Below the pieces are notes generated by a model that had not been told where the DNA came from, made no database searches, and worked only from the letters and a program-made list of their open reading frames with translations. A program made the translations under genes and the position numbers. This document shows, one piece after another, positions 2,241 through 58,296 of a stretch of 64,000 nt of DNA. Source of the DNA: Carcharhinus amblyrhynchos (lineage: Eukaryota); contig OZ336883.1 of NCBI GenBank assembly GCA_965287045.1, positions 80,228,001 through 80,292,000 on the forward strand, read 5' to 3'. How positions within the stretch are numbered: position 1 is the stretch's first letter; every line of letters begins with the position of its first letter.

Positions 2241-3479
2241 CTGCACACGGTAATATTTACATGTAGAAATACTAACCTTACAGGCAAATATTTGGTAAAT
2301 CCATGACGCCAACCCAGCTACAACATAAATTATCTCCAAGTAAAATCATCTCTAACTTCCAGGAAGCAAAGTCTCTGTCTTTGGTATGTTCGGGCGTAGC
2401 TGGTTAGTGAAACGTCCATTTTATGTTGTCACCAGCAGTGACTTGTTGAGAATGGTTCTGTTTATGTGATTGGAAAGTTCTTTCTACATAATCATCATTT
2501 AAAGCGCCTGGTGGTTCTGGGTAGGATAATTCCCTGTGTTTTTCATCCCTGATTCACAATGGCTCTCAATGATTAACTCATTCTTTGTAGTAATCAACTT
2601 AGCAAAGAAATCACCTGACAATATTTGATTGTTATCTGATGTATAATTCAAAAAGTTTATTTGTAAAAGTTTTGGCCTCAGCTTCAACATTCTAAATCTA
2701 GGAGTTATGTAATTTAAAATAACAGGCCTCATTCTTTCCCATGAGTGCTTCTTACAATAACCTCTTACTTAACACCTATTACAATATAAAACTTGTTGTT
2801 GACGGGGCGATTTAGTGGCGCTGATTGTTATGAAGTTAGCAACAGATATAATTTCTGAGGCTTGACGGCTGGAATATGATAAAAGATTCATTAGTTTTCT
2901 GTCTTTGTCCTCATCAGGTACAGAATAAAACTTGAATTTTCTGTTTACACAGTAACAAGTTGATATTGAAAATGTTCCATCTGATTTTGTTCTACAATTA
3001 AAGAGACGGTTTTATACATTTAAAACGGAATGCTTGATGGATGTTATCGCTAAAAAATGTGGTTGGTTCAATGACCACAAGATGGCAGAAGATACTTGCA
3101 CTGCCAGATGTTTAGTGTCAGCTGGTTGGTGAGATATGGCCTTCACCATTTATATTCTGTGGAGAGAACAGATTTTACTTTATACACGAGGTACTCTGTC
3201 TCAAAATAAAATATTGATAGAATTCTTCTGATCACTGCCCTGTTCTTCATTTGTGCCACTTACATTTCTGTAATATCATTGCTATGATGGTGTAGAAATA
3301 GATAAGATTAAACATAAATGAAGGAATCCAGTTTGGGATTCAATATGTATAAGCTGCATAAAGCATCGCTCGGAGGGTTCAGGATATCTGAGCCCTTGGT
3401 CAGGTCACGTATAATCATAGAATTCCTACTGTGCAGAAGCCCATCGAGCCTGCGCCAACAACAATCCCACGTTCAATGT

Positions 3480-10858: not shown

Positions 10859-11925
10859 TGTTACTGAATTCATTGGAGTGAAAGTTATAGCCTGGAAATA
10901 TCTGAAGCTTTGCTCATTGGTGATTAATGATGTGTTGTGGGAGGTTTTCATGAGAATGTTGCGCTGTGTCAATAACCACATTGTCATATTTCAGAATGTC
11001 CTCCATCACTTTCCATCGAAAATTGAGAGGAATGTCCTTTTAAAGCTGGGAATTTGGTGATCAAAAAGATGCGCAGTAAGCTCGAAGGATATAGCTGGAT
11101 GATATGCTGGACTGAAGTTAATACTTCTTCATCAGCTGTAAATAATAAGCATATGGTTAGACTCTATCAGCATTTAAAAAACACCTCACACCCTTTGCTT
11201 TTGAAAGGTTTCCTTCCACTATATAAAACAGACTAAAGTTTATGATGTCAACAAATCTAACAGCATTTTCACATTTAGCTTTTGAAATGTTTAGTGTCAC
11301 AACTGCTGAAAGTGTGAGTTATTGACGTCACTGCACAGGATCTGGAACCTGAGTCAATGGGACAAGTAACTTCATATCTCCTTAACCAATCAGGCCAAAG
11401 GAACCTAAAATTAACAGGGCAAAGAGTGAGAAAGAATGTAAAATATAATAAGGAAATTCAACGTCAAATCAGGTTCAGAAAGAGAAGGGAAAAAGGCTGG
11501 ATAAAGAAAGAGAGAAAAGTAAACAGAAAGGAAAATATATATTTTCCTTAAATTTTACATTCTAAAAATCTTTAACAACAATTAAAATGGGAAGGAGTGA
11601 GATTCAACATTTTAATTAGTTAATTTTCAGTGACAGAGATGTCGATTGATGGATATTAACACATTTCGTATTGTTGAAAAGGGTACTTAAGCTCTAACTG
11701 GGATGACTTTAGTTCATGTTTACCACACAAATATCATATTGAATGTATCTCATTGCTGAACTACTGGCTTTACAAAGCTGAACACTGTGATTCAGACAGC
11801 AGTGCTTGGATTTCTCTGGTTAACTATGCATCTGTACCTTGCCTGAAGTTGCATTAGCTTTTGACCCTCAATATCAGTGAGTTCCACTCACCTCACTGTT
11901 ATTTTGTCAGGATATCAGCCAGTAA

Positions 11926-12183
11926 AGATTATTTATTAGTCACAAGTAACGTTTGCATTAACACTCAATGAAGTTACTGTGAAATTCCCCTAGTCACCAC
12001 AGTCCGGTGCCTGTTTGGGTCAATGCACCTAATCAGCATGTCTTTCAGACTGTGGGAGGAAACCCATGCAGACGTGAGGAGAACACGCAAACTCCATACA
12101 GACAATGACCCATGCTAGGAATCGAAACCAGGTCCCTGGCGCTGTGAGGCAGCAGTGCTAACCATTGTGCCACTGTGTCACCA
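11926..12183 (-). mobile_element. V-SINE with alternative tail (type B)
   Basis: tRNA-like head and V core; the tail ends ...cttgtgactaataaataatc on minus. Confidence 0.8.
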
Positions 12184-13827: not shown

Positions 13828-16800
13828 GGTTAGCTTAACTTCTGTTGCAGGGAAAATGCTTGAATCTATCATCAAGGAAGAAATAGCGAAACATCTGAAT
13901 ATAAATTGTCCCATTGGTAAGATTTATGAAGGGTAAGTCATGTTTGACTAATTTGGTGGAATTCTTTGAGAACATTACATGCGCAGTGGACAATAGGGAA
14001 CCTGTGGATGTGATGTGGATTTGAACAGAGGGGAGTACGGTAGGATGAGAGAAGAATTGGCGAATGTTGACTGGGGGAGCGCGTTGGAAGGTAGGTCTGC
14101 TGAGGAGCAGTGGAGGATCTTTAAGGAGATCTTTCTTGGTGCTCAGCAGAAATTTATTCCGATGGTCAAAAAGGACCGTAGGAGGAGAGGTAATAAGCCG
14201 TGGATAACGAAGGAGGTGAAGGAAAGTGTTAAATTAAAAGCGGAGGCGTTTAGAGTAGCTAAGAGTAGTGGGCGAGAAGAGGATTGGGAGAGGTTTAAAT
14301 GTCAACAAAGATTGACAAAGAAGTTGATAAAGAAGGGTAGGAGAAACTATGAAGCTGGGCTAGCGCTTAATATAAAAAAGGATAGCAAGAGTTTTTATAA
14401 ATATGTAAAAAGGAAGAGGCTGGCTAGGGTGAACGTTGGACCCTTAGAGGATGAGAAGGGGGACTTAGTGGTAGGGGATGGGGAAATGGCTGAGGTCTTG
14501 AATAACTTTTTTGTTTCGGCCTTCACGGAGGAGGACGTGAATAATTTGCCGGATGTTAGAGATGGAAAGGTGGTAGGACTGGAGGGTCTTAATGACATTA
14601 CTGTTACTAGAGAGATGGTGCTCGACAGACTGGAGGGGCTGATTGTGGACAAGTCCCCAGGACCGGATGGAATGCATCCGAGGGTTCTGAAAGAAACGGC
14701 GGAGGTGATAGTGGATGCTTTGGTGGTTATTTTCCAAACGTCGCTGGATTCCGGGGAAGTGCCGGAAGATTGGAAAACGGCTAATGTTACGCCGTTGTTT
14801 AAGAAGGGTGCCAGGCAAAAGGCGGGGAATTATAGGCCGGTTAGTTTAACGTCTGTTGTAGGTAAAATGTTAGAATCTGTCATCAAGTAGGAAATAGCGA
14901 GGCATCTTGAGGGGAATTGCTTGATAGAGCAGACGCAGCACGGTTTCGTTAAGGGGAAGTCGTGTCTGACAAATTTACTGGAGTTCTATGAGGATGTGCC
15001 TAGGGCGGTGGATAGAGGAGAGCCGGTGGATGTGGTCTTTCTTGATTTTCAGAAGGCGTTTGACAAGGTACCTCACAAGAGGTTATTGCAGAAGGTCAGG
15101 GGACATGGAGTTGGGGGTAGGGTGTTAGCATGGATAGAGGATTGGCTGTCAAATAGGAGGCAGAGAGTGGGGGTCAATGGGTGCTATTCGGATTGGCGGT
15201 TGGTGACTAGTGGAGTGCCCCAGGGGTCGGTGCTGGGGCCTCAGCTTTTTACGATTTATATAGATGATCTGGAGGAGGAAACCGAGTGTATGGTGTCGAA
15301 ATTTGCTGATGACACCAAGATTGGTGGAACGGCAAATTGCGCGGAGGGTGTGGAGAGTCTACAGAAGGATCTAGATAGGCTGGGCGAATGGGCCAGGAAA
15401 TGGCAAATGGAATTTAATGTTGGCAAGTGCGAGGTGGTCCACTTTGGTAGGAATAATGGTAGGAAGGACTATTACTTACGTGGCGAAAAACTGCAGCAGG
15501 CGACGGTGCAGAAGGACCTCGGGGTCCTTGTGCATGAGTCGCAAAAACCCAGCTTGCAGGTGCAGCAGGTGGTCAGGAAGGCGAATGGGATGCTGGCCTT
15601 CATCGCGAGGGGGATTGAATATAAAAGTAGGGAGGTCTTGCTGCGGCTGTATAGGATATTGGTGAGGCCGCAGCTGGAGTACTGTGTGCAGTTTTGGGCG
15701 CCGTACTTACGCAAGGATATTTTGGCCTTGGAGGGAGCGCAGAGGAGGTTTACTAGGCTGATGCCGGAGTTGAGGGGGTTGAGCTATGAGGAGAGGCTGA
15801 ATAAACTAGACTTGTACTCGTTAGAGTTTAGAAGAATGAGGGGAGATCTCATTGAGACATATAAGATGATGAATGGGATGGATAGGATAGAGGTGGAGAG
15901 ACTCTTCCCGCTCAGAAAGGACAGAAGGACTAGGGGGCACAGCCTCAAGATAAAGGGGGGGCGGTTTAGAACGGAGTTGAGGAAGAACTCCTTCACTCAA
16001 AGGGTGGTGAATCTCTGGAATTCTCTGCCCGTTGAAGTGGTGGAGGCTACCTCGCTAAATATTTTTAAGACGCGGGTTGATGGGTTTTTGATAAGAGAGG
16101 GGATTAAGGATTATGGGAAGAGGGCGGGAATGTGGAACTGAGCCACGACAGATCAGCCATGATCTTATTGAATGGTGAGGCAGGCTCGAAGGGCTAGATG
16201 GCCTACTCCTGCTCCTATTTCTTATGTTCTTATGTTCTTATATGTATCTGGATTTCCCCAGAAGGCATTTGACAAGGTGCCGCACCAAAGACTGCTACGT
16301 AAGATAAAGGTGCATAGAGGGTTTGTCAACTAACAGAAAGCAAAGAATGGGGATAAATGGGTGTTTTTCTGGTTGGCAATCAGTGACTAGTGGTGTACCT
16401 CAGGGATCAGTGTTGGGACTGCAATTGTTTATGATTTACATAGATGATTTGGAGTTGGGGACCAAGTGTAGTGTGTCAAAATTTGCAGATGACACTAAGA
16501 TGAGTGGCAGAGCAAAGTGTGCAGAGGACACTGAAATCTGCAAAGGGGTATAGGTAGTCTGAATGAGTGGGTGAGGGTCTGGCAGATGGAGCACAATGTT
16601 GGTAAATGTGAGGTCATCCATTTTGGTAGGAATAACAGCTAAATGGACTATTATTTAAATGGTAAAAAATTGCAGCATGCTGCTGAGCAGAGGGATCTGG
16701 GTGTCCTTGTGCAGAAATCTCAAGGAGTTGGTTTGTGGGTGCAGCAGGTAATCAAGAAGGTAAATGGAATTTTGTCCTTCATCACTAGAAGGATGGAGTT

Positions 16801-29535: not shown

Positions 29536-32500
29536 TTCTAGGTTGGAGCAGCAGCTGAATGCACTTAGGAGAATGAAGGTGGCAGAAAATGTCATAGATA
29601 GGAGCTTTAGAGACATGGTCACACCCAAGGTGCAGGTTGATAGATGAGTGACAGCCAGAAGGAGCAGGCAGTCCACTGTGGTCATCCCCCTAATAAGTAT
29701 ACCATTTTGGATATTACTGGGGGGGTAGTGGGCTATCAGGGGATAACAGCAGCCGCAGCCAGAGCAGTGGCACCAAGGCTGGCTCTGTTGTTAAGCAGGG
29801 AGGGACAAAGAGCACAAGAGCAATATTTATAGGGGACTTTATAGTTAGAGGTGCAAGTAGGACTTCTATGGACGTGAAAGAGACTCCAGGATGGTACGTT
29901 GCCTCCCTGGTGCCAGGATCCAGGATGTCTCTGAACAGACAGAAAGCATTCTGAAAGGGGAAGGTGAACAGCCAGAGGTTGTGGTACATATTGGTACTAA
30001 AGGCATAGGTAGGAAGAGTGAGGAGGTCCTGCAGCAGCAGTTTAGGAAGTTAGGGAGAAAGTTAAAAAGCAGGATCTCTAGGGTTGTAATCTCAGGATTA
30101 CTCCCTGTGCCATGTGCCAGTGAGGCTAGGAATAGGCAGATAGAGCAGCTCAACACGAGGCTAAACAGCTGGTGTAGGAGGGAGGATATCTGGACCATTG
30201 GGATCCCTTCTGGGGAAGGGAGGATCTGTACAAGAAGGAGGGGCATAAATATTCTGGCCTGGAGGTTTGCTAGTGTCACACAGGAGGATTTAAACTAGTT
30301 TGGCTGGTGGGTGGAGTGAATCAATTGAAGGGGAACGAGAGAGCACGGCCAGTAAGACTCAGAGAAACAGCAGGCAGGGTGGGATTGCAGATCAGAGAGG
30401 GTCTGGTGGACTGAAGTGCATTTGTTTCAATGTGAGAAGTGTAACAGGTAAGGCAGATAAACTTAGAGCTTGGATTAGTACTTGGAACTATGATGTTGTT
30501 GCCATTACAGAGACTTGGTTAAGGGAAGGACAGGATTGACAGCTTAACATTCCAGGATACAGGTGTTTCAGGCGGGACAGAGGGGGATGTAAAAGGGCTG
30601 GGGGAGTTACACTACTGGGTTAAGGAGAATATCACAGCTGTACTCCGGGAGGACACCTCGGAGGGTTCATACAGCGAGGCAATATGGATAGAGCTCAGGA
30701 ATAGGAAAGGTGTAGTCACAATGTTGGGGGTTTACTATAGGCCACCCAACTGCCAGTGGGAGATTGAGGAACAGATATTTAGGCAGGTTTTGGCAAAGTG
30801 TAAAAGTAACAGGATTGTGGTGGGAGATTTTAATTTCCCCGATATTGACTGGGACTCACTCAGTGCTAGAGGCGTGGATGGGGCACAGTTTGTAAGGAGC
30901 ATCCAGGAAGACTTCCTGAAACAGCATGTAGATAGTCCAACTAGGGAAAGGGTCCATACTGGACCTGGTATTGGGGAATGAGCCCAGCCAGGTGGTCGAT
31001 GTTTCAGTAGGGGAGCAGCTCGGGAACAGTGACCACAATTCAGTAAGCTTTAAGGTACTGATGGATAAAGATAAGTGTATTCCTCAAGTGAAGGAGCGAA
31101 ATTGGGGGAAGGCTAATTACAACAATATTAGGCAGGAACTGAAGAATGTAAATTGGGGGCAGATGTTTGAGGGCAAAGCAACATCTGGCATGTGGGAGGC
31201 TTCCAAGTGTAAATTGATAGGGATTCAGGACCTGCACATTCCTGTCAGGATGAAGGATAAATATGGCAAGTTTTGGGAACCTTGGATAACGAGAGATATT
31301 GTGAGTTTCGTCAAAGAGAAAAAGGAAGCATTTGTCAAGGCTAGGAGACTGGGAACACACGAAGCAAGTGGGGAATACAAGGAAAGTAGAAAGAAACTTA
31401 AGCAAGGAGTAAGAAGAGCTAAAAGGGGTCATGAAAAAGCATTGGCCAGCAGGATTAAGGAAAATCCCAAGGCTTTTCACACATATATAAAGAGTAAGAA
31501 AGTAGCCAAGGAGAGGGTTGGCCCACTCAAGGACAAGGGAGGGAATCTATGTGTGGAGTCTGAGGAATTGAGTGAGGTATTAAATGAGTATTTTGCGTCA
31601 GTATTCACCAGAGAGAAGGATTTGGTGGATGATGAGTTTGGGAAAGGGTGTGTAGGTAGTTTGAGTCATGTTGAGATCAAAAAGAAGGAGATTTGGGGTT
31701 CTTGAGAGAAACATTAGGGTAGACAAGTCTCCAGGGCCTGATGGGATATACCCCAGAATACTGAGAGAGGCAAGGAAGGAAATTGCCAGGGCCTTGAGAG
31801 AAATCTTTGTATCCTCACTGGCTACAGGGGAGGTCACATAGTAAGAAGTGGCACAACACCAGGTTAAAGTCCAACCAGTTTATTTGATAGTAAACCCACA
31901 AGCTTTCAGAAACAGTGTTCCTTTGTCAGGTGTGTGGAAGGTACCATAAGAACTTCCTTCTTAAGTTCCTTCCTACAATCTGCCTTTAACAAAGCTATGT
32001 ACATATCTCTTTAACCTATGCTAATGCTATCTTCACTCACATTGTCTGCATCTTTAAGACGTGAATAGCAGGTTAGCTGTAAAGACTTGCATTCTAATCA
32101 GTATTCTGTAAACTGTGTGTGACTTTCTACGCCCTTTTCTGATCAGAACCTTCCACACACCTAACGAAGGAACACCGTTTCTGAAAGCTTGTGGGATTAC
32201 TATCAAATAAACTGGTTGGACTCTAACCTGCTGTCGTGAGACTTCTTACTGTGTTTACCCCAGTCCAACACCAGCATCTGCACATCATGACTACCATCTG
32301 TCAAAGAAGACAGAGGGTAACAGCGGAAGGGTGCTTTTCTGAATGGAGGTTTGTGACAAGTGGTGTTCCTCAGGGATCAGTGCTGGGACCATTGCTGTTT
32401 GTAATATGTATAAAGTATTTGGAGGGAAATGTAACTAGTTTGATTACTAAGTTTGCAGAAGACACAAAGGTTGGTGGATTTGTGGATAGCGATGAGGACA

Positions 32501-33432
32501 TCAGAGGATACAGCAGGATATAGATCAGTTGGAGACTTGGGGAGAGAAATGGCAGATGGAGTTTAATCCAGACAAATATGAGGTAATGCATGTTAGAGGA
32601 TCTAATACAGATAGGAAATATACAGTGAATGGTAGAACACTTAAGAGTATTGATAGGCAGAGGGATCTGGGTGTACAGGTACACAGATCATTGAAAGTGG
32701 TAACACAGGTGGGGAAGGTAATCCAGAAAGCATACAGCATGCTCACCTTCATCTGCATCCTCTATCTCCCTGGCAGCGAGTTCCAGATATCCAGGGCATT
32801 GAGTTTAAAAATTGGCAAGTCATGTTGCGAATTTATAGAACCTTAGTTAGACTGCACTTGGAATATAGTGTTCAATTCTGGTTGCCACACTACCAGAAGG
32901 ATGTGGAGGCTTTAGAGAGGGTACAGAAAAGATTTACCAGGATGTTGCCTGGTATGGAGGGCATTAGCTATGAGGAGAGGTTGGAGAAACTTGGTTTGTT
33001 CTCACTGGAACGATGGAGGTTGAGGGGAGGCCTGATAGAAGTCTACAAGATTATGAGGGGCATGGACAGAGCGGATAGTCAGAAGCTTTTTCCCAGGGTG
33101 GAAGAGTCAATTACTAGGGGGCACAGGTTTAAGGTGCGAGGGGCAAGAGGCAGATGGAGGGGCAAGGGGCAAAGGAGATGTAAGAGGCAAGTATTTTTAC
33201 ACAGAGGGTAACGGATGAATGAAACTCGCTGTCGAGGGAAGTAATAGATGCAGATAAGATAGTGAGTTTTAAGGGGCGTCTGGACAAATACATGAATAGG
33301 ACGGGAATTGAGGGATATGGTCCCCGGAAGGATAGGGGGCTTTAGTTCAGTCAGGCAACATGGGTTAGTGCAGGCTTGGAGGGCCGAAGGGCCTGTTCCT
33401 GTGCTGTAATTTTCTTTGTTCTTTGTCCTTTG
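29536..33432 (+). mobile_element. Long decayed CR1 LINE (ORF1 esterase, APE endonuclease, RT, tail)
   Basis: ORF1 VRCLPGARIQDV...VVVHIGT...VVISGLLPVP (SGNH esterase-like). ORF2 CICFNVRS...DVVAITETWL, GVYYRPP, VGDFNFPDIDW, GNSDHN, GVPQGSVLGP. Many frameshifts. Confidence 0.92.
31838..32298. mobile_element. Penelope-like inverted terminal-repeat insertion with two hammerhead motifs
   Basis: ~100-bp inverted arms at 31841-31941 and ~32149-32250. Motifs CAC-CTGACAA...GAAA-GC-TT-GTG (minus) and CAC-CTAACGA...GAAA-GC-TT-GTG (plus). Confidence 0.75.
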
Positions 33433-33840: not shown

Positions 33841-34131
<291 letters not shown>

Positions 34132-34398: not shown

Positions 34399-35860
34399 TT
34401 AATAAAAACTCTCCTCTTTAATGTTTTATTTGGAAAAAGGCAGAATCAGATTTGCTCTCAGAATTTCTCTGTAAACATTAAATAAAGGAAGAATACTCTA
34501 CGTACAACGTACAAATGGAAGCTAACGCAATGTGACAATATATGCAGCACAATTCTATGAGGTGCAGAACATTCTGATTTTGACCTAGCTGCTGAAATGG
34601 AGCAGTCTCCATTTCCATGTGCAAGAAATCTTTAAAATTCATTCAAATGCAATTCTGACAAAAGGGTGATGTAATAAGCTTAGTTTTCATATTTTGGGAA
34701 TACAGTAAACCGATGTGTGAATCTGGTTTCCAATCAATTGAGTTCAGAATAATCCAGTGCAGAGCTAGTTTAGTATCATGTGTAAATGCTGACATCACTC
34801 TCTCTCAACCCATTTCCAAACCGTTGACATGCAGAAAATAGCCCTGGAAATGAACCCTGAGGAATACCCTGAAAAAAAACTGGTCCAACTCCTGAGCTGT
34901 CTTTTTGTAAATTTTTAATTTGTAAAAAAGAAATTTCAATCCAGTTTAGTTATCCTCCCTCTAATTCTGAACCCTTAGTGAGTTCCCACCTGGATTGTCT
35001 CAAAGGCATTTCTTAAATTCCATTTGGGATCAGTGTTCTTACATTTCCTCTTATCACCCCACTGACCATGTCTTGATCGCTTTAATCGTTAATTCTTAGT
35101 CAATGAGCTGAAAACGCAGGAAATTATTTTCATTAAGGAGCTAAGAGTTTTGCTGGAGTCGACAGCAGATTAAGGGTTAATTCAGTTGTTACAATGGAGA
35201 TGGAGGCAAAGAGAATCAGGAAGCTCTCAAAAGAAGAATCAACATCTCTCGGTAATAGGCGAGAGTTTAGATTAATGGAAAGAAAAGATAAGCCTTCACA
35301 TCTGTGATACGACTTAGGCCAAAGGTGAAAGACAGCAACAGGAAGGATATGTCATGACTAGCTGGAAGGAAACTCAAATGCGACAACCAGAAATGACTTG
35401 ATGAATATGTGCAGAATATGCTGCAAAGTGGTTTCAGCAGCACTGAAATTCTTCAAGTTCCTAAGATGAGATCAAGGGTCAGCATGGGTGGTGTCCAAGA
35501 TCCAAACTGATTTCACCAGAATAATCAAGGCTGAGGACTGGAGACATAATGTAAATTTGGACCTGACATAGCTTCTCCCTAATTCAAACTAAACAAAGAT
35601 AGCTAAGAGCTCAAAACGCATTGCAAATTAAGTCCCATGCATTGGCTTTTTAAATTACACATCCTTTCAAGTGAAGTCATTTAGAGATATTTTTATACGA
35701 GAGACACTTCACTTTAGCTGCGGGCTGGCTGTTAGCTTTACAACTGAATGAAGAGAATATAATGGAAGTTCACCAACAGTGTTATTAATGACGCTACTTT
35801 ATGTCAGTTTTGAAAATTGTATTATTAATCTGTTTGCCCCTGTAACTGTCACGTACGTAC

Positions 35861-36022
35861 CTGCGTAATAAGAAACTTTGTTATGCGTTCTGGCAATCGT
35901 CCTTTCTCGCTTGATAGGATCACTTCCAGCATGTCTCCATGGAGCTTTTCCATGACAACAAACACTCTTTCCAGAGTCTCAAACATGCATTCCAAATTCA
36001 CTACACCAGGGTGATGTAAGTT
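35861..36022 (-). CDS. PRKD1: PRKD1 coding exon, kinase hinge region
   Basis: [54 protein letters not shown]. Acceptor cacccag, donor gtacgt, 162 nt. Confidence 0.96.
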
Positions 36023-36290
36023 CTGGGTGGAAGAGATTGTATTAATAAAAAAGGTGCACTTTTCCATTGATAATAATATAAAATGGAACGATACCTTCCA
36101 AATAAATTGTTGGATTATTTTGTGGAGAAGTGAAATCTTACAGTAAGGTTAGATTATATTGTGGACACTGACCCAATTAAAGAGTCAATCATTAAACATT
36201 TATATTTACAAGATTTTTACTTTTGTGATGATGTCAGTCCGAGGGAATGACACCATCAGTTTCACTGGTGACAACAAACAACTGAATTAA

Positions 36291-36571
36291 AGCTTATTTA
36301 TTAGTGTCACAAGTAGGCTTACGTTAACACTAAAGTTACTGTGAAAATCCCCTAGTCGCTACACTCCGGTGCCTGTTTGGGTGCACTGAGGGAGAATTTA
36401 GCATGGCCAAAACACCTAACCAGCGCATCTTTCAGACTGTGGGAGGAAACTGGAGCACCTGGTGGAAACCTGCACAGACACGGGGAGAACATGCAGACTC
36501 AGCACAGACAATGACCCGAGGGTGGAATTGAACCCGGGTCCCTGGCACTGTGAGGCAGCAGTGCTAACCAC
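36291..36571 (-). mobile_element. V-SINE with type B tail
   Basis: V core plus tail ...gtaagcctacttgtgacactaataaataagc on minus. Confidence 0.85.
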
Positions 36572-36854
36572 CAACCTCAACCAGATAGTCTAAATGTTTC
36601 TACTCTCTCAAAATAACTGTTCAATTCTCATTGGAAAATGGATCAAGGATATCCAAACTCACTTTGCACAGGATTCTGACAACCGATTATCAGCATGCTT
36701 TCAATATTTTAGGCTTGGGTTTTATCCTGGGCATCAAGGGTTAACTCACATTGGCAAAGCTCCTCCCCATTCCCACCTCACCGCCACACAAGCTTTATTC
36801 TTGTTTATTGCCAATATTCAGAATTGCCAATATTCAGAATTTCTCCACATTTAC

Positions 36855-36961
36855 CTGTAAAATGGCGACTTCATTCCGAAGCTGACTTTCTTGCTTTGTT
36901 GGAAACCTCAGCTTATCAATAACTTTGATTGCTACGTCTCTCCCTGTCTTTCGGTGTTTCC
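36855..36961 (-). CDS. PRKD1: PRKD1 coding exon, VAIK lysine and alphaC helix
   Basis: Hand translation (G)[35 protein letters not shown]. Acceptor tttgtag, donor gtaaa, 107 nt. Confidence 0.96.
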
Positions 36962-37589
36962 CTACAAACAAACAGCAAAAACTCAAGCTTCAATGTGGAC
37001 TAGAATGCTGGAACATTATTCCCTGTGGTATTTAAATTGTTGGATTGCAATTCCCGACTTCTCCAGCTCTCAGTTTGATAGTCAACGGGATCCTTATTCA
37101 TGCGGCTATTGTTGGTTTCAGAATCCTGGCAATGAGGTTATTTTGATTCAAATGGCTGGGGAAGTGAACTAGGTTTCAGTGTTCCAGGTTAACAATCTAT
37201 TCAGCAACCTCATCTGATACAGTTTTGAATGGTTGATTAGGAATAGATCTCTCTGGGAGAGATGAGCTTGGAGTCCCAATTTCAGCTGCTCCTTGTGTTC
37301 TACTCACGCAGCCAGTGGCAACGTCTCCCCAAGAATCTCCGCAGGGAGTTGAGGGCTGTCCAGATTTTATCCGGAAGATTGAAACCAGGGACTTCACCAC
37401 TTTGGTTAGTTACCGGGATGAGACTGGTGATTCCTACAGTCGGGAGGGATGGGGTTGCCGCAGTTTCTGGGATGCAGAGCACGTTGCAGTCGGGGCCATG
37501 GATTTCAGAGGCAGTTTTTTTGAGGTCCTGTTATGGGACTGACTTATTAGCTTTCAGTCAGTGGCATGTTTTCATAAAGAACCTGTTCC

Positions 37590-37778
37590 CTGTGGATATC
37601 AGGAAGTTTTTTACGCAGAGAATGGTGATGGTGGAGGCAGATACAATAGGGGCTTTTGGATAATCACATGAATATACAAGGAATAGAGGGATATGGACCA
37701 AGGGCAGGTAAAGGGATTAGTTTAATTTAGTGTCATGTTCAGCACAACATCATGGGACAAAGGGCCTGTTTCTGTGTA
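37590..37778 (+). mobile_element. CR1 3' tail fragment
   Basis: tttttacgcagag...gaatagagggatatggacc...aagggcctgtttctgtg. Confidence 0.7.
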
Positions 37779-38115
37779 GTAGAACCATTGAATCCCTACA
37801 ACGGAGAAGGAGACTATTTGTCCCATCAAATCTGCACTGACAACAATCCCATCCAGGCCCTATCCCTGTCACCCCACATATTTACCCTGCTAATCCCTCT
37901 AACCTACACAGTCTGGGCACTAAGGGACAATTTAGCATGGCCAATGCACCTAACCCGCACATCTTTGGAGTTTGGAAAGAAACCCATGCAGACACAGGGA
38001 GAACATGCAAACTCCACACAGACAGTGACCCAAGCCGAGAATCGAATCCAGGTCCTGGAGTTGTGAGGCAGCAGTGCTAACCATTGTACCACGGTGCCGT
38101 AACCACTGTGCCACT
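37779..38115 (-). mobile_element. V-SINE with CR1-type tail
   Basis: Head, V core and tail are all recognisable. Confidence 0.85.
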
Positions 38116-38654: not shown

Positions 38655-39990
38655 CTGATTTGATTTATTGTCACATATATTAGTAAGACTATTAGTAACA
38701 ATGAAAAGTATTGTTTCTTGTGCAATATATAGCCAAAGCATACTGTTCATAGAGGAGGAAAGGAGAGGATACAGAATGTAGTGTTATAGTCACAGCTAGT
38801 GTGTAGAGAAGGATCAACTTAGTGCAAGATAGGTCCACTCAAAAGTCTAACAGCAGCAGGGAAGAAGCTGTTCTTGAATCGGTTGGGATGTGTCCTCCGA
38901 CTTTTGTGTCTTTTTCCTGACAGAAGAAGGTGGAAGAGAGAATGCCCGGGGTGTGTGGGGTCCTTGATTATGCTGGCTGCTTTTCGGAGGCAGCGGAAAG
39001 CATAGACAGTCAATGGATGGGAAGCTGGTTTGTGTGAGGGGCTGGGCTTTGTTCATGACCCTTTGTAGTTTCTTGCAGTCTTGAACAGAGCAGGAGTTGT
39101 ATCAAGCTGTGATACAACTGGAAAGAATGCTTTCTATGGTGTATCTTTAAAAGCTGGTAAGAGTTGTAGTGGACATGCTAAATTTCATTATCCTCCTGAG
39201 AAAGTACAGGCATTGGTTGGCTTTCTTAACTATAGCATCAGCATGAGGGACCAGGACAGGTTGTTGGTGATCTGGACACCTAAAAACTTGAAGTTCTCGA
39301 CCATTTCTACTTCGTCCTCAATGATGTAGACAGGGGCATGTTCTTCTTTACGCTTCCTGAAGTTGATGACAATCTCCTTCATTTTGTTGACATTGAGGGA
39401 GAGATTATTGTTGCCGCACCAGTTCACCAGATTCTTGATCTAATTTCTGCACTTTGTCTCGTCATTGTTTGAGATCTGACCCACTGCAGAGGTGTCGTCA
39501 GCACACCTGAAGATCGAGTTGGAGGGGAATTTGGCCACACTGTCATAGGTGTATAAGGAGTATAGTAAGGGACTCAGGACACAGCCTTGTGGGGCACCGG
39601 TGTTGAGGGTGATCATGGGGGAGGTGTTGTTGCCTATCCTTACTGATCATGGTCTGTGAGTTAGGAAGTTTAGGATCCAATTGGAGATGGAGGAGCCGAG
39701 GCCCAGGTCACTGAGTTTGGAGATGAGTTTTGTACGAATGACGGTGTTGAAGGTTGAGCTGTAATCAATAAACCAGAATCTGACATTGGTGTCCTTGTTA
39801 CCTAAGTGTTCCAGAGTTGAGTGTAGGGCCAGGGAGATGGTGTCTCCTGTGGAGCTGTGGTGAACTGTAGTGGAATCTGGGCGGCTGGAATAGATCTGTG
39901 CCATGACTAACCTTTTGAAGCATTTCATAATGGATGTCAGAGCCACCAGGCGATAGTCATTAAGGCACACTGCCTGGCTTTTCTTCAGGA
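38655..39990 (-). mobile_element. Rex1/Babar LINE RT fragment to 3' end
   Basis: CLNDYRLVALTSIMKCFKRLVMA, FIDYSSTFNT, WCGNNNLSLNVNKMKEIVINFRK, FKFLGVQIT, RFKNSFFPAAVRLL. Confidence 0.85.
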
Positions 39991-40932
39991 TGATGGTTTG
40001 GTAACAAAGAGAGACAATTTCTCTGACTGGAATTTGTTATGTGTAAAACTCTTGGAATTTAGAAGTTCAGTTGTTGATTGCAATGAAGCAGCTTCATTGA
40101 TGGTAATTGTCCATTAATCAAATGGATTGTAAACATGAGCTGTGAATAGAAGAGTGGATTTGTTGGTGATGGTCTGGTTTGTCATTCCCCTTCGCTAAGT
40201 GACTACTTGCCAGTTGTAACATGTTTTGTTTGTGTAACCATTCACTGTGACTTCATTAGTCAGCATACTTGCTAATCCAGTCCATGTAGACTATACCTAC
40301 AGTTATTCAACAAAACACAATTCATGGTTTGAAATAGAATATGGATACGCCTGATTTTCCTGGTTTTGTAATTTCACCCACTTGCGTTCTATCTTAATAG
40401 CTGAAATTATTATCCACACTGGCTATCAATGCAGGCAAAAGTAAAATGCACAAAGAATGATCAATTATTTGGCCTGATAATAAAAGATTTAGAACCACAA
40501 AAGGAGCTCACAAGAGTTTATTTGTTTTGTCTGGTGCTTTGTTGTAGATAAGTGTTTAATTACAGTATTTAAGTCAGACATTAAGCTTAAATATGGATAA
40601 GACTTGCTGTAATATTGCAATCTGGGTAAAGCACTGTATGACCGACTGCCCATCATGTTGTTGACCAGCCATTAAAGCTTTGCTCCTCAGTCTCTTGCAT
40701 CATTTGACCCAATGGCCAAGCCCCTCACATTCCCTCTCTCCTCAGGTACTACACCCTGAGTGGGCATTGGTGATCATGGACTTCCATACTAACCTTGCTC
40801 TAGAGGCGTGAACCTTTTATCACTGGCAGAATAATCATCCAGTTTATGAGGCATTTTAAAATGATCCTTTTTTTGTCTTTTTTTGATCTCTTTCACCATC
40901 AATCTTTCCCCATCAGCATCAGATTTACTAAG

Positions 40933-43403: not shown

Positions 43404-43797
43404 AGCTGGTGGGGATTTTGTAAGCTGTAAGAGTGGAAATGCGGGAGGTCGGTTGACAGCTGGAGCTGAAATTTGGCTTTTCCAATTGGGGCATAAATTT
43501 AGGGATGAACTCAGTGACGTGTTTGTGGCAGGTGAGGCCTCACAATGTCCTGTGGGGGATTCCTACTCATCAAACATTCACATGTCATGAAAACTTGTGA
43601 AAACTTTTTGCAATTGTCTCCTACCTTTCTGATAAAATCAGCGATGCTCGAGAATCCCACAGCACCTGGTTCACATCACTTTAAAGGTGTGACTTTGTGT
43701 TGCTGTGTCAGAATGCAATCATTTTCCTTGTTGAGTGGTGAGGTGAAAGAATGGGAGTGGGAGAATTGCAATTTGCACGGAGGCTGGGAAAAGCAGG

Positions 43798-45149
43798 GGT
43801 GAGCAGTGTGGGGGGACAGTGTGGAGTCAGGCTGAGGTAGGGAGGAGTGAGCAGTGTGGGGGGGGACAGTGTGGAGTCAGGCTGAGGTAGGGAGGAGTGA
43901 GCAGTGTGGGGGGGACAGTGTGGATTCAGGCTGAGGTAGGGAGGAGTGAGCAGTGTGGGGGGGACAGTGTGGATTCAGGCTGAGGTAGGGAGGAGTGAGC
44001 AGTGTGGGGGGGACAGTGTGGATTCAGGCTGAGGTAGGGAGGAGTGAGCAGTGTGGGGGGGGGACAGTGTGGAGTCAGGCTGAGGTAGGGAGGAGTGAGC
44101 AGTGTGGGGGGGACAGTGTGGATTCAGGCTGAGGTAGGGAGGAGTGAGCAGTGTGGGGGGGGACAGTGTGGATTCAGGCTGAGGTAGGGAAGGGTGAGCA
44201 GTGTGGGGGGGGGACAGTGTGGAGTCAGGCTGAGGTAGGGAGGAGTGAGCAGTGTGGGGGGGGACAGTGTGGAGTCAGGCTGAGGTAGGGAAGGGTGAGC
44301 AGTGTGGGGGGGGACAGTGTGGAGTCAGGCTGAGGTAGGGAAGGGTGAGCAGTGTGGGGGGGGGACAGTGTGGAGTCAGGCTGAGGTAGGGAAGGGTGAG
44401 CAGTGTGGGGGGGGACAGTGTGGAGTCAGGCTGAGGTAGGGAAGGGTGAGCAGTGTGGGGGGGGGACAGTGTGGAGTCAGGCTGAGGTAGGGAAGGGTGA
44501 GCAGTGTGGGGGGGGGACAGTGTGGAGTCAGGCTGAGGTAGGGAGGAGTGAGCAGTGTGGGGGGACAGTGTGGAGTCAGGCTGAGGTAGGGAAGGGTGAG
44601 CAGTGTGGGGGGGGGACAGTGTGGAGTCAGGCTGAGGTAGGGAGGAGTGAGCAGTGTGGGGGGACAGTGTGGAGTCAGGCTGAGGTAGGGAAGGGTGAGC
44701 AGTGTGGGGGGGGACAGTGTGGATTCAGGCTGAGGTAGGGAAGGGTGAGCAGTGTGGGGGGGGACAGTGTGGATTCAGGCTGAGGTAGGGAAGGGTGAGC
44801 AGTGTGGGGGGGGACAGTGTGGAGTCAGGCTGAGGTAGGGAGGAGTGAGCAGTGTGGGGGGGGACAGTGTGGAGTCAGGCTGAGGTAGGGAAGGGTGAGC
44901 AGTGTGGGGGGGGGGAACAGTGTGGAGTCAGGCTGAGGTAGGGAAGGGTGAGCAGTGTGGGGGGGGACAGTGTGGATTCAGGCTGAGGTAGGGAAGGGTG
45001 AGCAGTGTGGGGGGGGACAGTGTGGAGTCAGGCTGAGGTAGGGAAGGGTGAGCAGTGTGGGGGGGGGACAGTGTGGAGTCAGGCTGAGGTAGGGAGGAGT
45101 GAGCAGTGTGGGGGGACAGTGTGGATTCAGGCTGAGGTAGGGAGGAGTG
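43798..45149 (+). repeat. ~48-51-bp G-rich minisatellite, about 27 copies
   Basis: Unit GAGCAGTGT(G)nACAGTGTGGAKTCAGGCTGAGGTAGGGARGRGT, nearly homogeneous. Confidence 0.97.
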
Positions 45150-46145
45150 ATATGGAAAGGGCCTGTTGTCCTGGGTGTCGGGGGTTGGTGATAATGATTG
45201 TCAGTCAAGATAAATGAGGGGCCTTTAGGGCAGTGACAATACTTTGCACATGTGGGCCTATCTCAGGGCATTGGTTGGCTTAATCCTTACAGCGCTTTGA
45301 GTTCATCTGCAACATTTTAATTACCCTGTCTGAGAGTTGCTTCTAACGATCTCATTTATGATGCATAGAAGGGGTTAGGTTTAGCTTTAGAATTTGGATT
45401 TTTTTAGGATTAGGTTCAGCCACATCCCACACAGCAGTGAAGACAAGACTGGACACTAACATTGACATTTAATAAAATGTGAAAGCAGAAACACAACACT
45501 GTTTCCTCCACAAGAGAGAAATGTACTTACTCCCTGTAATAATCAATACACGTTGGCCGCGAGTGTGCCTGTACACTTAACTCTCTGAGTAAGTTTGTCT
45601 CAACAAATAATGCTAGCACACACATCAATAAAGTGAAACTGATTTAAGATGAAACATTCCCAAGTGAATTTTAAATGTGAAAAACAGCTGTGTCACCTCA
45701 ATAATGTGCTCTCAATAAGTCTCATGTCAATGGAATGGAGTGGGGTGCATGGTCCCAGCAGCGAGGGGTTACTGAGACAGGAATAGACTAGAGAAGGCAG
45801 CATCCTTTTCCTTACAGCAGAGAGAATGTTGAGGTGACAGAGATGTTTAAAATCATGAAGGATTTAATCAAGTAAATAAAGAGAAACTGTTTCGATTGAG
45901 TAAGGAGTTAATGCTAGGGAGTAACAAGGTGATTGGTAAAGGAATTAGAGGCGGTATGAGGATTAATGTTTTTATGTAGTGTGTTAGGATTTGAGCACAC
46001 TGCCTGCTAGGGTTTTTGGAATTGATACAATAGCAGCTTTCAAAACAGAATTAGATAAATATTTGAAAGACTTAAAAATATTAAGATTATAGGGATAGAT
46101 TGGAGGAGTGGGATGAATGAGATTGTTCTCTGGAAGTGTTGGTGT

Positions 46146-47371: not shown

Positions 47372-47683
47372 GGGGCGGCGCAGCAGCACAGTGGTTAGCA
47401 CTGCTGCCTCACAGAGCCAGGGAACCGGATTCGATTCCTGGCTTGGGTCACTGTCTGTGCAAAGTCTGCACTTTCTCCCCGTGTCTGCGTGGGTTTCCTC
47501 CGGGTGCTCCGGTTTTCTCCCACAGTCTGAAAGCCGTGCTGGTTAGGGTGCATTGGCCGTGTTTAAATTCTCTCTCAATGTACCCAAACAGGTGCTGGAG
47601 TCTGGCGACTAGGGGATTTTCACAATAACTTCATTGCAGTGTTAATGTAAGCCTACTTGTGGCACTAATAAATAAACTTTAAA
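47372..47683 (+). mobile_element. Full-length V-SINE with type B tail
   Basis: gggcggcgcagcagcacagtggttagcactgctgcctcacag...gtaagcctacttgtggcactaataaataaacttt. Confidence 0.9.
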
Positions 47684-48203
47684 AACATCCCTGTGTGGGA
47701 GTAAAATTCTGGTCTTGCTCTTCAGTGTGTCTACATAAAGATAATAGATTGCAGCTCGACATGAGTTTCAGATAGTTTGCTATTTACTTTTTAGCTCCTC
47801 TTTTTTCCCCATTCACAACTGGCCTGTGAACAGACCTGTCTGTACTGGAATGATTTCAGTTGCATGTCCTCTGAGAGTGAGTGAACATTTCCAGCTGAGC
47901 GAGACTGCCTGTGTACAACAGGCTGGGATTACAGAGGCTGTGGGTTACGAAGGGCTAACCGTTAGCTACTCCTGAATTGGACCAATCCATGATCATGTCT
48001 ATTTTGTATTCTGTAAAAGGCCAGTGATTGGTGCTGCCAGAATCGATGTTCTTTTACACAGACTGGACAAAGGGACTGGACAGCACGGGGGAGAAATAAC
48101 TGTCTGAAACGTGACAATGTGACGGTGTCCTTAACCTTCAGTGATGGGATTGATTCCAGTTAGTGATTAATAAGCTCCCTTTCTCTGCTGCAACAATACT
48201 CAC

Positions 48204-48256: not shown

Positions 48257-48933
48257 CTGACAAAGAGAATACAACTGAATTTACCACCTGTGAAATGTCA
48301 TGTAATGTTTGTGCTTCATTAAAACAGGAAACACTCTGCAGGTCAGGAGGTTTCTCCATCCGTCAATGTTACTGGACCAGTGAGTAATTTTATTTCACAT
48401 TTTTGACACCGGAGCCCAGCATTAAAACATCCCAGCAGCTGAGTAAGGGAAGGTGTGACGTCCTGAGGCCCCAGACACTCACAGACTGCTGGGGATCAGG
48501 AGCCACTCAGGTCCGTGCTGATAATGGCCCTCTGATCACAAGCCAGCTGGAAATTCGGGGAAACTGGACCAGAGGTGCAGCTTTGCTTGGATTACTGTAA
48601 AGGGGTCCAGTGACCTTCTCTTATTGACCACCCTCCCTCTGTGGTGCTGCCTTTTGTTAGCCTTGCTGCCTCTGTTGTTGACTGTGTGAATCCCCCTTTA
48701 TCAGATCCTCTCCTTTTACTGCTGAAGTTCTGGGAATGATGGGTGCATGAGACCCATTGGTATTCCATTAAATAAACTGTTTGGGCAATGCAGACAGTGA
48801 TATGAGAACCTGTGTGTTTATGAGTTACATCCACACAGATGTAGAGTCCTGAGATTTTCTACTCTCATTGTCCAAACTCAAAGCTTCACTGACTGACCCC
48901 ACATTGGCCTCTTCCCACTTGCATCTACATTTA

Positions 48934-49408
48934 TAGAATCATGGAATCCCTACATTTTCCTTAATTTAGCCCATCATCAAGGAGTCTCCATTGGCCTTTT
49001 ATAACTGCAATAGGTCGTAATTTAATAGCTTTTTTGCTGATCCCTGCATCGTGATGAGTATTCACAACTTTGGTTATGTTCTTGTAGGATTTGGGAGTTT
49101 CTAGTTTGGGTGAAGCAACACGAGTAGCATTTCCCATTTGACCCATTGAGTCTGAGCTGACCACAATCCCGCACAGTCCCAAAACCCACATATTTACCCT
49201 GCTAATCTCCCTGACACAATTTATCATGGCCTATCCACATAACCTGCATATTTTGGCTGTGGGAGGAAACCAGAGCGGCCGGAGGAAACCCACGCAGACA
49301 TGGGGAGAAAGTGCAGATTCTGCACAGATAGTGCCCAAGTTGGGAATCGAGCCCGGATCCCTGGCACTGTGAGGCAGCAATGCTAACCATTGGGCCACCA
49401 TGCCACCC
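48934..49408 (-). mobile_element. V-SINE (CR1-type tail) interrupted by the RTCB fragment
   Basis: Body 49408-49134; the terminal tgtagggattccatgattcta is at 48954-48934. Confidence 0.85.
48955..49137 (-). pseudogene. RTCB: RTCB (tRNA-splicing RNA ligase) 3'-end fragment embedded in a V-SINE
   Basis: 49137-48994 translates to [48 protein letters not shown]. This matches the recalled vertebrate RTCB C-terminus [54 protein letters not shown] sits at the expected stop position. Confidence 0.88.
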
Positions 49409-49810
49409 TAACACCTCTTGACAGCTACAAGTAAGTTTTGGAAAAAGCCATTTTCAATGTATGAGTGACCCTGGAATCGTGGCCCTTCACCACCCGCTGG
49501 TCACCATTGACTATGTCCCCATTGCCAATGACCATTCCAATATCACTCAGCACCTGTAACCCGTGAAGTTTCACTCGTCACCTTTGACCCTGTCATTGGG
49601 GAAGTGGAAATACTGACCTGAATTCTCTGGTTGTTCACAACCCACTGTCACTGTCAGTGAAAATGGAGAACCTCCGTTCACTGCAGCGGGACTGGAGAAT
49701 CCCAGCCACGGGCAAAGTGAATCCAGCGAACATCACTACCCCCATGAGCCTACCCATGGACAGAGTCCCTCTGATCCAAGATTCCCCACATCACATCCTG
49801 GCATAGGGTA

Positions 49811-55504: not shown

Positions 55505-55718
55505 ACGTTGTGGCACAGTGGTAAGCACTGCTGCCTCACAGCGCCAGGTTTATGGGTTCAATTCCCAGCTTGGGTCCCTATCTATGTGCAGTTCTGGAAG
55601 ATGTGCTGGTTAAGTACATTGACCTGAGCAGGCACCGGATTGTGGTAACAAGGGGAATTTCACAGTAAGTTCAATGCAGTGTTAATGTAAGCCTACTTGT
55701 GACTAATAAATTAACTTA
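55505..55718 (+). mobile_element. V-SINE with type B tail, internally deleted
   Basis: Head and type B tail are present; most of the V core is missing. Confidence 0.75.
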
Positions 55719-56166
55719 AGCTTATTGCTGTATTGTGTGTGAGTTTGTTGCCAAAAATGGAATATGTTGAGTCCAGATAATATTAAACATCCAGTAGTTG
55801 TTGGCACTGCCGCTGACCTCAATATTTAACCCCATCATTGCTGCTTCATTGTGGTCACAGTCTGTACAATCTACAAAACACCCGACAGCAACTCAATAAA
55901 CTTAATTTGACATTAAAGTGGTCTCAACAGAGAGATCAAAAGAAGCAATGTTATGGGAAAACCATCACTACCAAAATTCCCCCAAACTCACACACTGTCC
56001 TGACATGGGTATGGATCAAGAGATTGATTGTGATTGGGCAATCTGTGTTATTAAACATGGAACATGACAGCGGGAAACTCAGTGGAAACTTGTCCAATTG
56101 GGGGGTTTTGAATTTTAAGCTGAGTCAGGTCTGCCCATTTGTGTGATTAAAATGAGCCAACGTTCG

Positions 56167-56889: not shown

Positions 56890-57177
56890 GAATTGAAGAG
56901 GAAACAAACTCTATTTTGCTTTTGTGACATTAAATGTGATAGATGAGCATTCGGATGTTTTGTGCATGGTTTATTGCATCAGTAACACCTCTTTATATAT
57001 TATAGTGGGACATTAAGTGGCTGGCTTGATAATTAATTCTAAGGGAAGCAGAGAGTCCACATCATAAAAGACAGTTTGTGTTTGATAGTCTTCTGACCTG
57101 CTCCACTCTGCTATTTAAATCTTTCCCATTTGATTATGTATTTATTTCTTCAATCCATCAGCATCTCCCACAATAAC

Positions 57178-58296
57178 ATTGTTACTCTGTGTGATCATAT
57201 CACTCCGTGGATCACTATTACTCAGTGTGATCACTATTACTCTATGTGATTACTATTACTAAATGTGATCACTATTACTCAGTGTGAGCATTACTACTCA
57301 GTGTGACCACTAGCACTTAGTGTGATCAGTATTACTCTGTGTGATCACTTACTCTGTGTGATCACTATTGCTCTGTGTGATCACTTAGTGTGATTATTAT
57401 TACTCAGTGTGATCACTATTGCTCAGTGTGATTATTATTATTCAGGATAATCACTATTACTCCGTGTGATCACTATTGTTTTGTGTGATTACTGTTGCTC
57501 TGTGAGATCGCTATTGTTCTGTGATCATTACTGCTCTGTGTGATCACTATTACTGTGTGATCACTATTACTCAGTGTGATCACTATTGTTCAATGTGATC
57601 ACTATTACTCAGTGTGATCACTATTACGCTGTGTGATCACTATTACTCAGTGTGATCTCTATTACTCAGTGTGATCACTATTACCCAGTGTGATCACTAT
57701 TACTAAATGCGATCACTATTACTCAGTGTGATCATTATTACTCAGTGTGATCATTATTACTCAGTGTGATCACTAGTACTCAGTGTGATCAGTATTACTC
57801 TGTATGATCACTTACTCTGTGTGATTACTATTATTCAGTGTGATAATTATTACTCCGTGCGATCACTTACTCAGTACGATCACTATTACTGTGATCACTA
57901 TTATTCAGTGTGAACATTATTACGCAGTGTGATCACTATTACTCAGTGATCTCTCTTACTCAATATGATCACTATTGTTCTGTGTGATCACTACTACTCA
58001 GTGTGATCACTATTACTTGGGTAATCTCTATTATTACGTGTGATCATTATTACTCAATGTGATCACTATTTCTTTGTGTGATCATTATTGTTCTGTCTGA
58101 TCACTATTACTCAATATGATCACTATTACTCTGTGTGATCAGTATTACTCAATGTGCTCACTATTTCTCAGTGTGATCAATATTATTCAGTGTGATCACT
58201 ATTACTCAGCGTGAGCACTAGTACTTAGAGTAATAGTGATCACACAAAGTACTAATGCTAGTACACAGAGTAATAGTGATCACACAGTGTGATTAC
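57178..58296. repeat. Degenerate 19-bp tandem repeat (GTGTGATCACTATTACTCA)n, ~55 copies, last units inverted
   Basis: Directly visible. Orientation flips at ~58226. Confidence 0.93.

Follow-up and report, generated by a model that had tools for sequence, protein, structure and literature searches.

The window, a stretch of 64,000 nucleotides (64 kb), holds 11 related SINE copies, one of which is a chimera. Located at 48934–49408 on the minus strand, it reads on inspection of the sequence as a SINE, then a foreign insert of 179 nt, then 21 nt of SINE tail. The head and body (49134–49408) are of tRNA type, putatively HE1/V-SINE-like, and align with the 10 other copies in the window. A Pol III A box at 49387–49397 matches the A-box pattern exactly, and a B box at 49343–49353 matches the B-box pattern with one mismatch. 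The retained 3' end (48934–48954), delimited by alignment with siblings, carries a CR1-type terminal repeat. This layout, with about 180 nt of foreign sequence replacing about 13 nt of tail, had been described in the initial annotation and stands: the body runs from 49408 to 49134, the tail from 48954 to 48934, and in the alignment of same-tail siblings the 179 nt between them occupy the place of 13 nucleotides. These 13 nucleotides are present in all four same-tail siblings of the window (at about 4124, 18794, 26384 and 37776, all on the minus strand) and, in each of four public sequencing runs, in the consensus drawn from the loose ends of contigs of paralogous SINEs. The contigs of these runs (X1, X13, X15 and X21) were also compared to the locus; three represent other organisms, and X1, with no differences, is possibly the window's own source sample and not independent.

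All RTCB-derived and SINE-derived parts of the chimera are co-oriented on the minus strand. As annotated, the insert has no poly(A), its longest run of A being six, and there is no target-site duplication of its own; a 13-nt loss stands in place of a duplication, so the insert does not have the features of a classical processed pseudogene. For the SINE as a whole, the annotated absence of a target-site duplication holds less well, since a decayed direct repeat is possible, with an upstream copy at 49414–49429 and its partner at 48915–48929. The two copies agree in 13 columns out of 16 (uncorrected p 0.022 against random window pairs), with one extra mismatch at 48927 in three orthologs; in the same test, one of three siblings has a clearer repeat than the chimera.

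Three protein kinase exons (Pfam Pkinase) lie on the minus strand at 33841–34131, 35852–36148 and 36837–36989, with a sequence like that of protein kinase D. Some 12 kb upstream of them and in the same orientation, the chimera is perhaps inside an intron of the kinase gene; no kinase exon was found upstream of it among 141 of 164 long and 120 of 130 shorter open reading frames scanned. The window also contains decayed LINEs with reverse transcriptase domains at 13997–16240, 29861–33420 and 39150–40036, the second of which also contains an esterase-like (OSK/GDSL) and an endonuclease domain, as in CR1/L2-type elements. Two tandem repeat arrays are located at 43781–45150 (unit of about 50 nt) and 57177–58234.

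The A and B boxes in its head, and its interspersed occurrence at high copy number, identify the host as a tRNA-derived SINE. No intact tRNA was detected in the head by ARAGORN or Rfam, and an Rfam scan of 48500–49800 gave no matches. Summed contig depth is 42,000–77,000 on the SINE part and below 100 on the insert. The host may be a member of the V-SINE/HE1 family and the DNA is likely to be that of a shark, in keeping with published tables that place HE1 in sharks and rays; we consider the V-SINE label plausible. A tRNA-type head, a hairpin tail common to a LINE and short terminal repeats are points of likeness to HE1 as it is described; the foreign insert sets the window copy apart. HE1 has a central V domain of about 80 bp (PMC4824008), and it is tabulated for sharks and rays together with its partner LINE, HER1 (PMC3747384, PMC4824008). 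A sister group of SINEs (47386–47690, 36287–36575, 11923–12182 and 55505–55720) has the head and body of the host family and another 3' end with an AATAAA-rich terminus, a swap of tails. Separately, the minus-strand SINE at 37776–38100, which has a recognisable direct repeat, interrupts a plus-strand LINE-type 3' end at 37640–37790.

The tails of the siblings are predicted to fold into a hairpin with a 9-bp outer and a 5-bp inner stem. Its core matches the 3' end of a reverse transcriptase-bearing LINE of the window at 16180–16211 (78% of 32 nt, E 0.01). In the chimera, the 5' arm and loop of the predicted hairpin survive at 49134–49158, and the lost 13 nucleotides are its 3' arm. The 3' junction thus lies at the predicted hairpin base, the first retained base being 289 and the end of the 9-bp helix 290. 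The 309-nt predicted fold contains eight helices of at least 5 bp, and the junction is at most 1–2 nt from the end of the longest of them; the chance of this is about 2% for that helix and about 13% for any. Among five sequences, none of the 14 pairs of the hairpin shows compensatory changes, and the folding energy is no better than that of shuffled sequences (z −1.55 to +0.53). In CR1 tails, a hairpin has been described for putative reverse transcriptase binding (PMC5729268); the predicted hairpin base in the SINE is a likely pause site for the enzyme, since copying that began at the 3' end would run into the stem at just this point. A tail fragment of SINE or LINE origin at 3405–3465 on the minus strand has lost 12 nt inside the hairpin, in its inner part, and the spot may therefore be fragile in DNA too.

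Translated from 49137 to 48994, the insert gives 48 residues, which match the Pfam RtcB family with E 2e-7, a score that passes the curated cut-off, and the PDB entry for human RTCB with E 2e-16 (41 of 48 residues identical, with a 3-residue gap); seven residues, plus the stop, differ from horn-shark RTCB. Judged by these similarities, the identification as the C-terminus of RTCB, proposed in the initial annotation, is far beyond chance. The 3' end of the penultimate coding exon occupies 49099–49135; it has lost 9 nt in frame, 2 nt short of the exon junction. The last coding exon, 35 codons long and decayed, follows at 48994–49098, as seen from Pfam, PDB and ortholog comparison. The former stop codon at 48991–48993 is now CAA, and the start of the 3' UTR extends over 48952–48990, where gene-type contigs and a second RTCB-like locus match. 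Both the CAA and the 3' UTR had been annotated from the window; the gene-type contigs have TGA at this place and match on into the UTR. A reading of the 36-nt UTR as a duplicated SINE tail can be discarded, since the gene-type contigs show the same stretch as genuine UTR.

The insert runs on without a break at 49098–49099, the point where the RTCB gene has its last coding intron, as a retrocopy would. An intron near this place, between the EE and AP codons, had been proposed in the initial annotation, and several sequences now bear it out. An RTCB gene of vertebrate type has a 159-nt GT-AG intron there; it is found on contig L022, which is not verified as shark and is the sole full reading of the intron; the proteins P0054 and P0077 are unspliced read-throughs of an intron at the EE/AP position. 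In metagenome loci, the intron was seen in one of 80 (L022), the other 79 being contiguous, an unsorted mixture of transcripts or other lineages, so that the position rests on L022, P0054, P0077 and the joints of the gene-type contigs. In these contigs, the last-exon match extends to 49097 (X1) or 49091 (X21), and a separate match covers 49101–49135. The X21 contig has 1833 further letters at the joint. A gap of 13 nt elsewhere was handled as a plain insertion; this and the 1833 extra letters make an intron the likely content, and we infer that the RTCB gene of the sampled species has an intron at EE/AP.

Spanning the intron position without the intron makes spliced RTCB mRNA the most likely source of the insert. 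The 9-nt deletion beside the exon junction, which is shared with the X13 and X15 orthologs (no gap in either alignment), ends 2 nt from the junction, so letter by letter the intron could have been lost through a DNA deletion. Neither end of such a deletion could lie more than about 11 nt from a splice site, and it is much less likely than a spliced mRNA plus a small deletion. The RNA intermediate of the initial annotation is accordingly supported in so far as the intron is missing at EE/AP; an RNA template is what we infer from this. A local RTCB gene as template is rejected, no other RTCB piece being present anywhere in the window. The UTR at 48964–48990 on the minus strand resembles the 5' arm of the SINE hairpin with p 0.013 in one of five comparisons and p 0.11–0.63 in the other four, measured against random window pieces; this resemblance may have helped the mRNA to dock.

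At the 5' junction, SINE homology reaches 49134, where the paralogs end, and the gene-type match upstream of the intron (35 letters, 49101–49135) ends at 49135 in both runs that show the joint, so the overlap is GG (49134–49135). The initial annotation had proposed that ATGG was shared between the SINE and Met-Gly codons of RTCB. This longer microhomology is ruled out by the end of the gene-type match and by horn-shark RTCB (P0045), which has Lys, not Met, at the junction codon; the ATG at the junction comes from the SINE. At the 3' junction, the overlap is likely to be TGT (48952–48954, at the predicted hairpin base), with the second RTCB-like locus taken as a stand-in for the old UTR. The UTR match ends at 48966 (three of four runs) or 48956 (one of four) in gene-type contigs, and at 48952 in all four runs for the second locus; TGT is less secure than GG because the gene-type contigs stop matching before 48952. 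The joint chance of overlaps of at least 2 and at least 3 nt is 0.008.

The join of flank, tail and insert is bridged in all four runs, with 17 differences in 581 positions for X15, 14 in 424 for X13 and 22 in 415 for X21. The 5' junction is bridged by at least 31 letters in two of the four (X1 and X15) and by 30 in X13; X21 shows no bridge. No piece joining the unique flank to an intact tail, as expected of a plain SINE, was found among the 32 of 3211 pieces listed, and all five tail-to-body joints are attributed to paralogs because each has a 21-letter side. The comparison with orthologs suggested in the initial annotation thus gave the insert in four of four runs and no insert-free SINE, all the splits being younger than the insert. 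The largest divergence of a run is 22/415, or 5.3%; the age of the insert exceeds that of the sampled splits several-fold.

The insert has diverged at 10 of 109 replacement sites (9.2%, 95% CI 4.5–16), and the SINE at 20 of 199 non-CpG sites (10.1%, 6.2–15) from the leave-one-out majority of the four siblings. The two values do not differ (Fisher p 1.0) and give a likelihood ratio for co-insertion of 1.6–2.6, the intervals being wide. The stop codon is lost in three of four lineages, TGA being kept in the X21 ortholog; in the last exon, the X13 ortholog has a 1-nt deletion causing a frameshift and the X15 ortholog a 6-nt insertion. An open reading frame of 89 codons at 48964–49230 is ruled out as functional by seven changes in an otherwise invariant stretch (50 residues in 20 of 20 vertebrate RTCB proteins, hand-picked from 120 matches) and by the indels in two orthologs. 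Two TG-to-CA doublets, at 48992–48993 and 49055–49056 and 63 nt apart, post-date the split of the X21 lineage and are likely to be CpG-mediated two-step changes.

Contig depth at 49100–49119 is accounted for by two contigs, the ortholog and the gene exon, in all four runs, and that at 48980–49059 by three contigs in X15. Since two contigs explain the insert depth, there is no sign of the amplified subfamily that the initial annotation had proposed to look for, contigs showing presence rather than absence. The second RTCB-like locus matches 48952–49064 in four of four runs and covers the last-exon end and UTR only; apparently ending at 49064, it would have no upstream exon part. It is possibly a 5'-truncated retrocopy, in which case RTCB mRNA would have been copied more than once. 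The chimera appears to be a real, old, single-copy and decaying fossil without evident function.

The two mechanisms named in the initial annotation, a double template switch and an RNA-templated patch, remain the leading ones. We regard as probable a double template switch, from SINE RNA to RTCB mRNA and back, by a CR1-type reverse transcriptase during insertion of the SINE. The enzyme would have primed on the SINE 3' end, which is intact, and copied about 21 nt. At the predicted hairpin base, where the 3' junction lies, it would have paused and switched to the RTCB 3' UTR at TGT. About 190 nt of mRNA would then have been copied across the last exon junction, consistent with the RTCB identity and the missing intron, before the enzyme returned to the SINE RNA at GG, 13 nt upstream of its point of departure, and finished the copy as far as the tRNA head, which would account for the anatomy. 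Germline fixation would have preceded the split of the four sampled lineages, followed by neutral decay and, within the limits of the contigs, no amplification. Equal divergence, co-orientation, a junction at the hairpin base and short overlaps tilt the balance to this double switch; it is not proven because no sampled ortholog is old enough to show the SINE without the insert. In fungal LINE chimeras, hairpins were predicted directly upstream of switch sites, which is a precedent for this reading; these chimeras showed no microhomology, which speaks against it (PMC2104539). The wide age intervals and the lack of covariation in the hairpin also count against a double switch, and the 13-nt deletion, the 2–3 nt overlaps and the absence of target-site duplication and poly(A) are equally the signature of a class 2 templated insertion.

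That signature is the main argument for a later patch, a possible but rather less probable origin, in which the SINE was already resident, a break in its tail or internally primed retrotransposition cost 13 nt, and RTCB cDNA was joined in by microhomology. Microdeletion, short overlaps and missing target-site duplication and poly(A) fit the class 2 TSIPs as described, whose donors include spliced cDNAs and whose experimental patches span 73–414 bp (PMC5110952); the age intervals permit a later event, and one sibling (3405–3465) has a deletion in the hairpin region. Such a patch would predict neither the co-orientation (a factor of 2) nor the equal divergence (a factor of 1.6–2.6), nor that the junction should fall at the hairpin base, 21 nt away from where priming occurs, and an insert-free ortholog was not seen in any of the four runs, though the splits are young. 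Very unlikely, in our estimate, is a DNA-level copy of an existing processed RTCB pseudogene by break repair or gene conversion, which would make the RNA origin second-hand. Cartilaginous fishes are rich in retrocopies (14,081 reported in bioRxiv 10.64898/2026.06.26.734816), and the second RTCB-like locus matches the UTR to 48952 in all four runs, beyond the gene-type contigs; yet that locus stops matching at 49064 in both runs where its contig continues, and the window's lack of another RTCB piece counts against this source as well. RNA ligation, for instance by RTCB itself, joining SINE and RTCB mRNA pieces before retrotransposition, would fit the co-orientation, and RtcB is reported to join U6 to RNA of L1 or GFP, in vitro as well as in extracts (PMC6789731). 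It would require double cleavage of the SINE RNA as well as two ligations, the published products have full U6 ending in a cyclic phosphate, overlaps of 1–3 nt are treated in the same report as typical of reverse transcriptase template jumps (PMC6789731), and no trans-acting model predicts the ligase-encoding mRNA as cargo; we consider it exceedingly improbable. The caution of the initial annotation on this point was apt, since nothing ties RTCB ligase activity to the event and the identity of the cargo looks coincidental: RTCB is most likely a bystander housekeeping mRNA.

The value of the locus, itself apparently functionless, is as a fossil of mechanism. The probable double template switch raises a general route, of which we are doubtful, whereby tail-specific CR1-type reverse transcriptases would start synthesis on the tail of a SINE or LINE, halt at the base of the hairpin and move over to nearby mRNAs, yielding retrocopies; the locus would be one visible case. 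Were this so, shark genomes would contain numerous pieces of mRNA with this 21-nt tail as their end, their junctions concentrated at the base of the hairpin, and retrocopies would be explained in genomes whose main LINE is believed not to recognise mRNA. Suh is said to have invoked, in 2015, the need for a tail stem-loop to explain why birds have few retrogenes. Stringent LINEs are described as requiring a tail stem-loop (PMC3747384), and the retrocopies of cartilaginous fishes have been tied to CR1 or Tx1 by correlation (bioRxiv 10.64898/2026.06.26.734816). A SINE tail as a handle for priming on mRNA is a concrete, countable signature for any shark assembly.

Several known systems resemble parts of the chimera. 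L1/mRNA chimeras have already been catalogued (PMC11838501), and exchange of SINE modules by template switching has been discussed for sharks and other organisms (PMC5499810, PMC4824008). In the literature covered, largely open-access articles, no SINE-mRNA-SINE sandwich with a CR1-type tail was found. Chimeras of U6 and L1 made by RtcB ligation share with the window only the name RTCB and the co-orientation; there, as reported, RtcB acts as the enzyme on U6 as the 5' partner, whereas here RTCB mRNA is the cargo (PMC6789731). Class 2 templated insertions (Onozawa and Aplan, PMC5110952) are alike in size, microdeletion, microhomology, missing target-site duplication and poly(A), and spliced cDNA donors. 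As described, however, they occur at breaks anywhere, while the insert in the window is co-oriented, lies in a retroposon tail at the base of its hairpin, and has diverged like its host.

Chimeras of LTR element, mRNA and LTR element have been attributed to a double template switch, and both of their ends show overlaps (Tan et al. 2016, PMC5131818). In these too, a partial mRNA replaces part of the element, with element sequence on both sides, overlaps at both junctions and no poly(A); the median overlap reported is 6, against 2–3 nt in the window (PMC5131818). Here the mRNA sits in a non-autonomous SINE whose tail is of CR1 type, 13 nt are replaced and no further copies were seen. The tripartite LINE chimeras (Gogvadze et al. 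2007, PMC2104539) and the L1/mRNA chimeras (PMC11838501) likewise combine co-oriented RNA pieces in one insertion, with a switch beside a predicted hairpin, but as reported they join three different RNAs, or have the mRNA at the 5' end, and show clear target-site duplications. In the chimera of the window, by contrast, the enzyme would re-enter the same SINE RNA, 13 nt from where it had left it.
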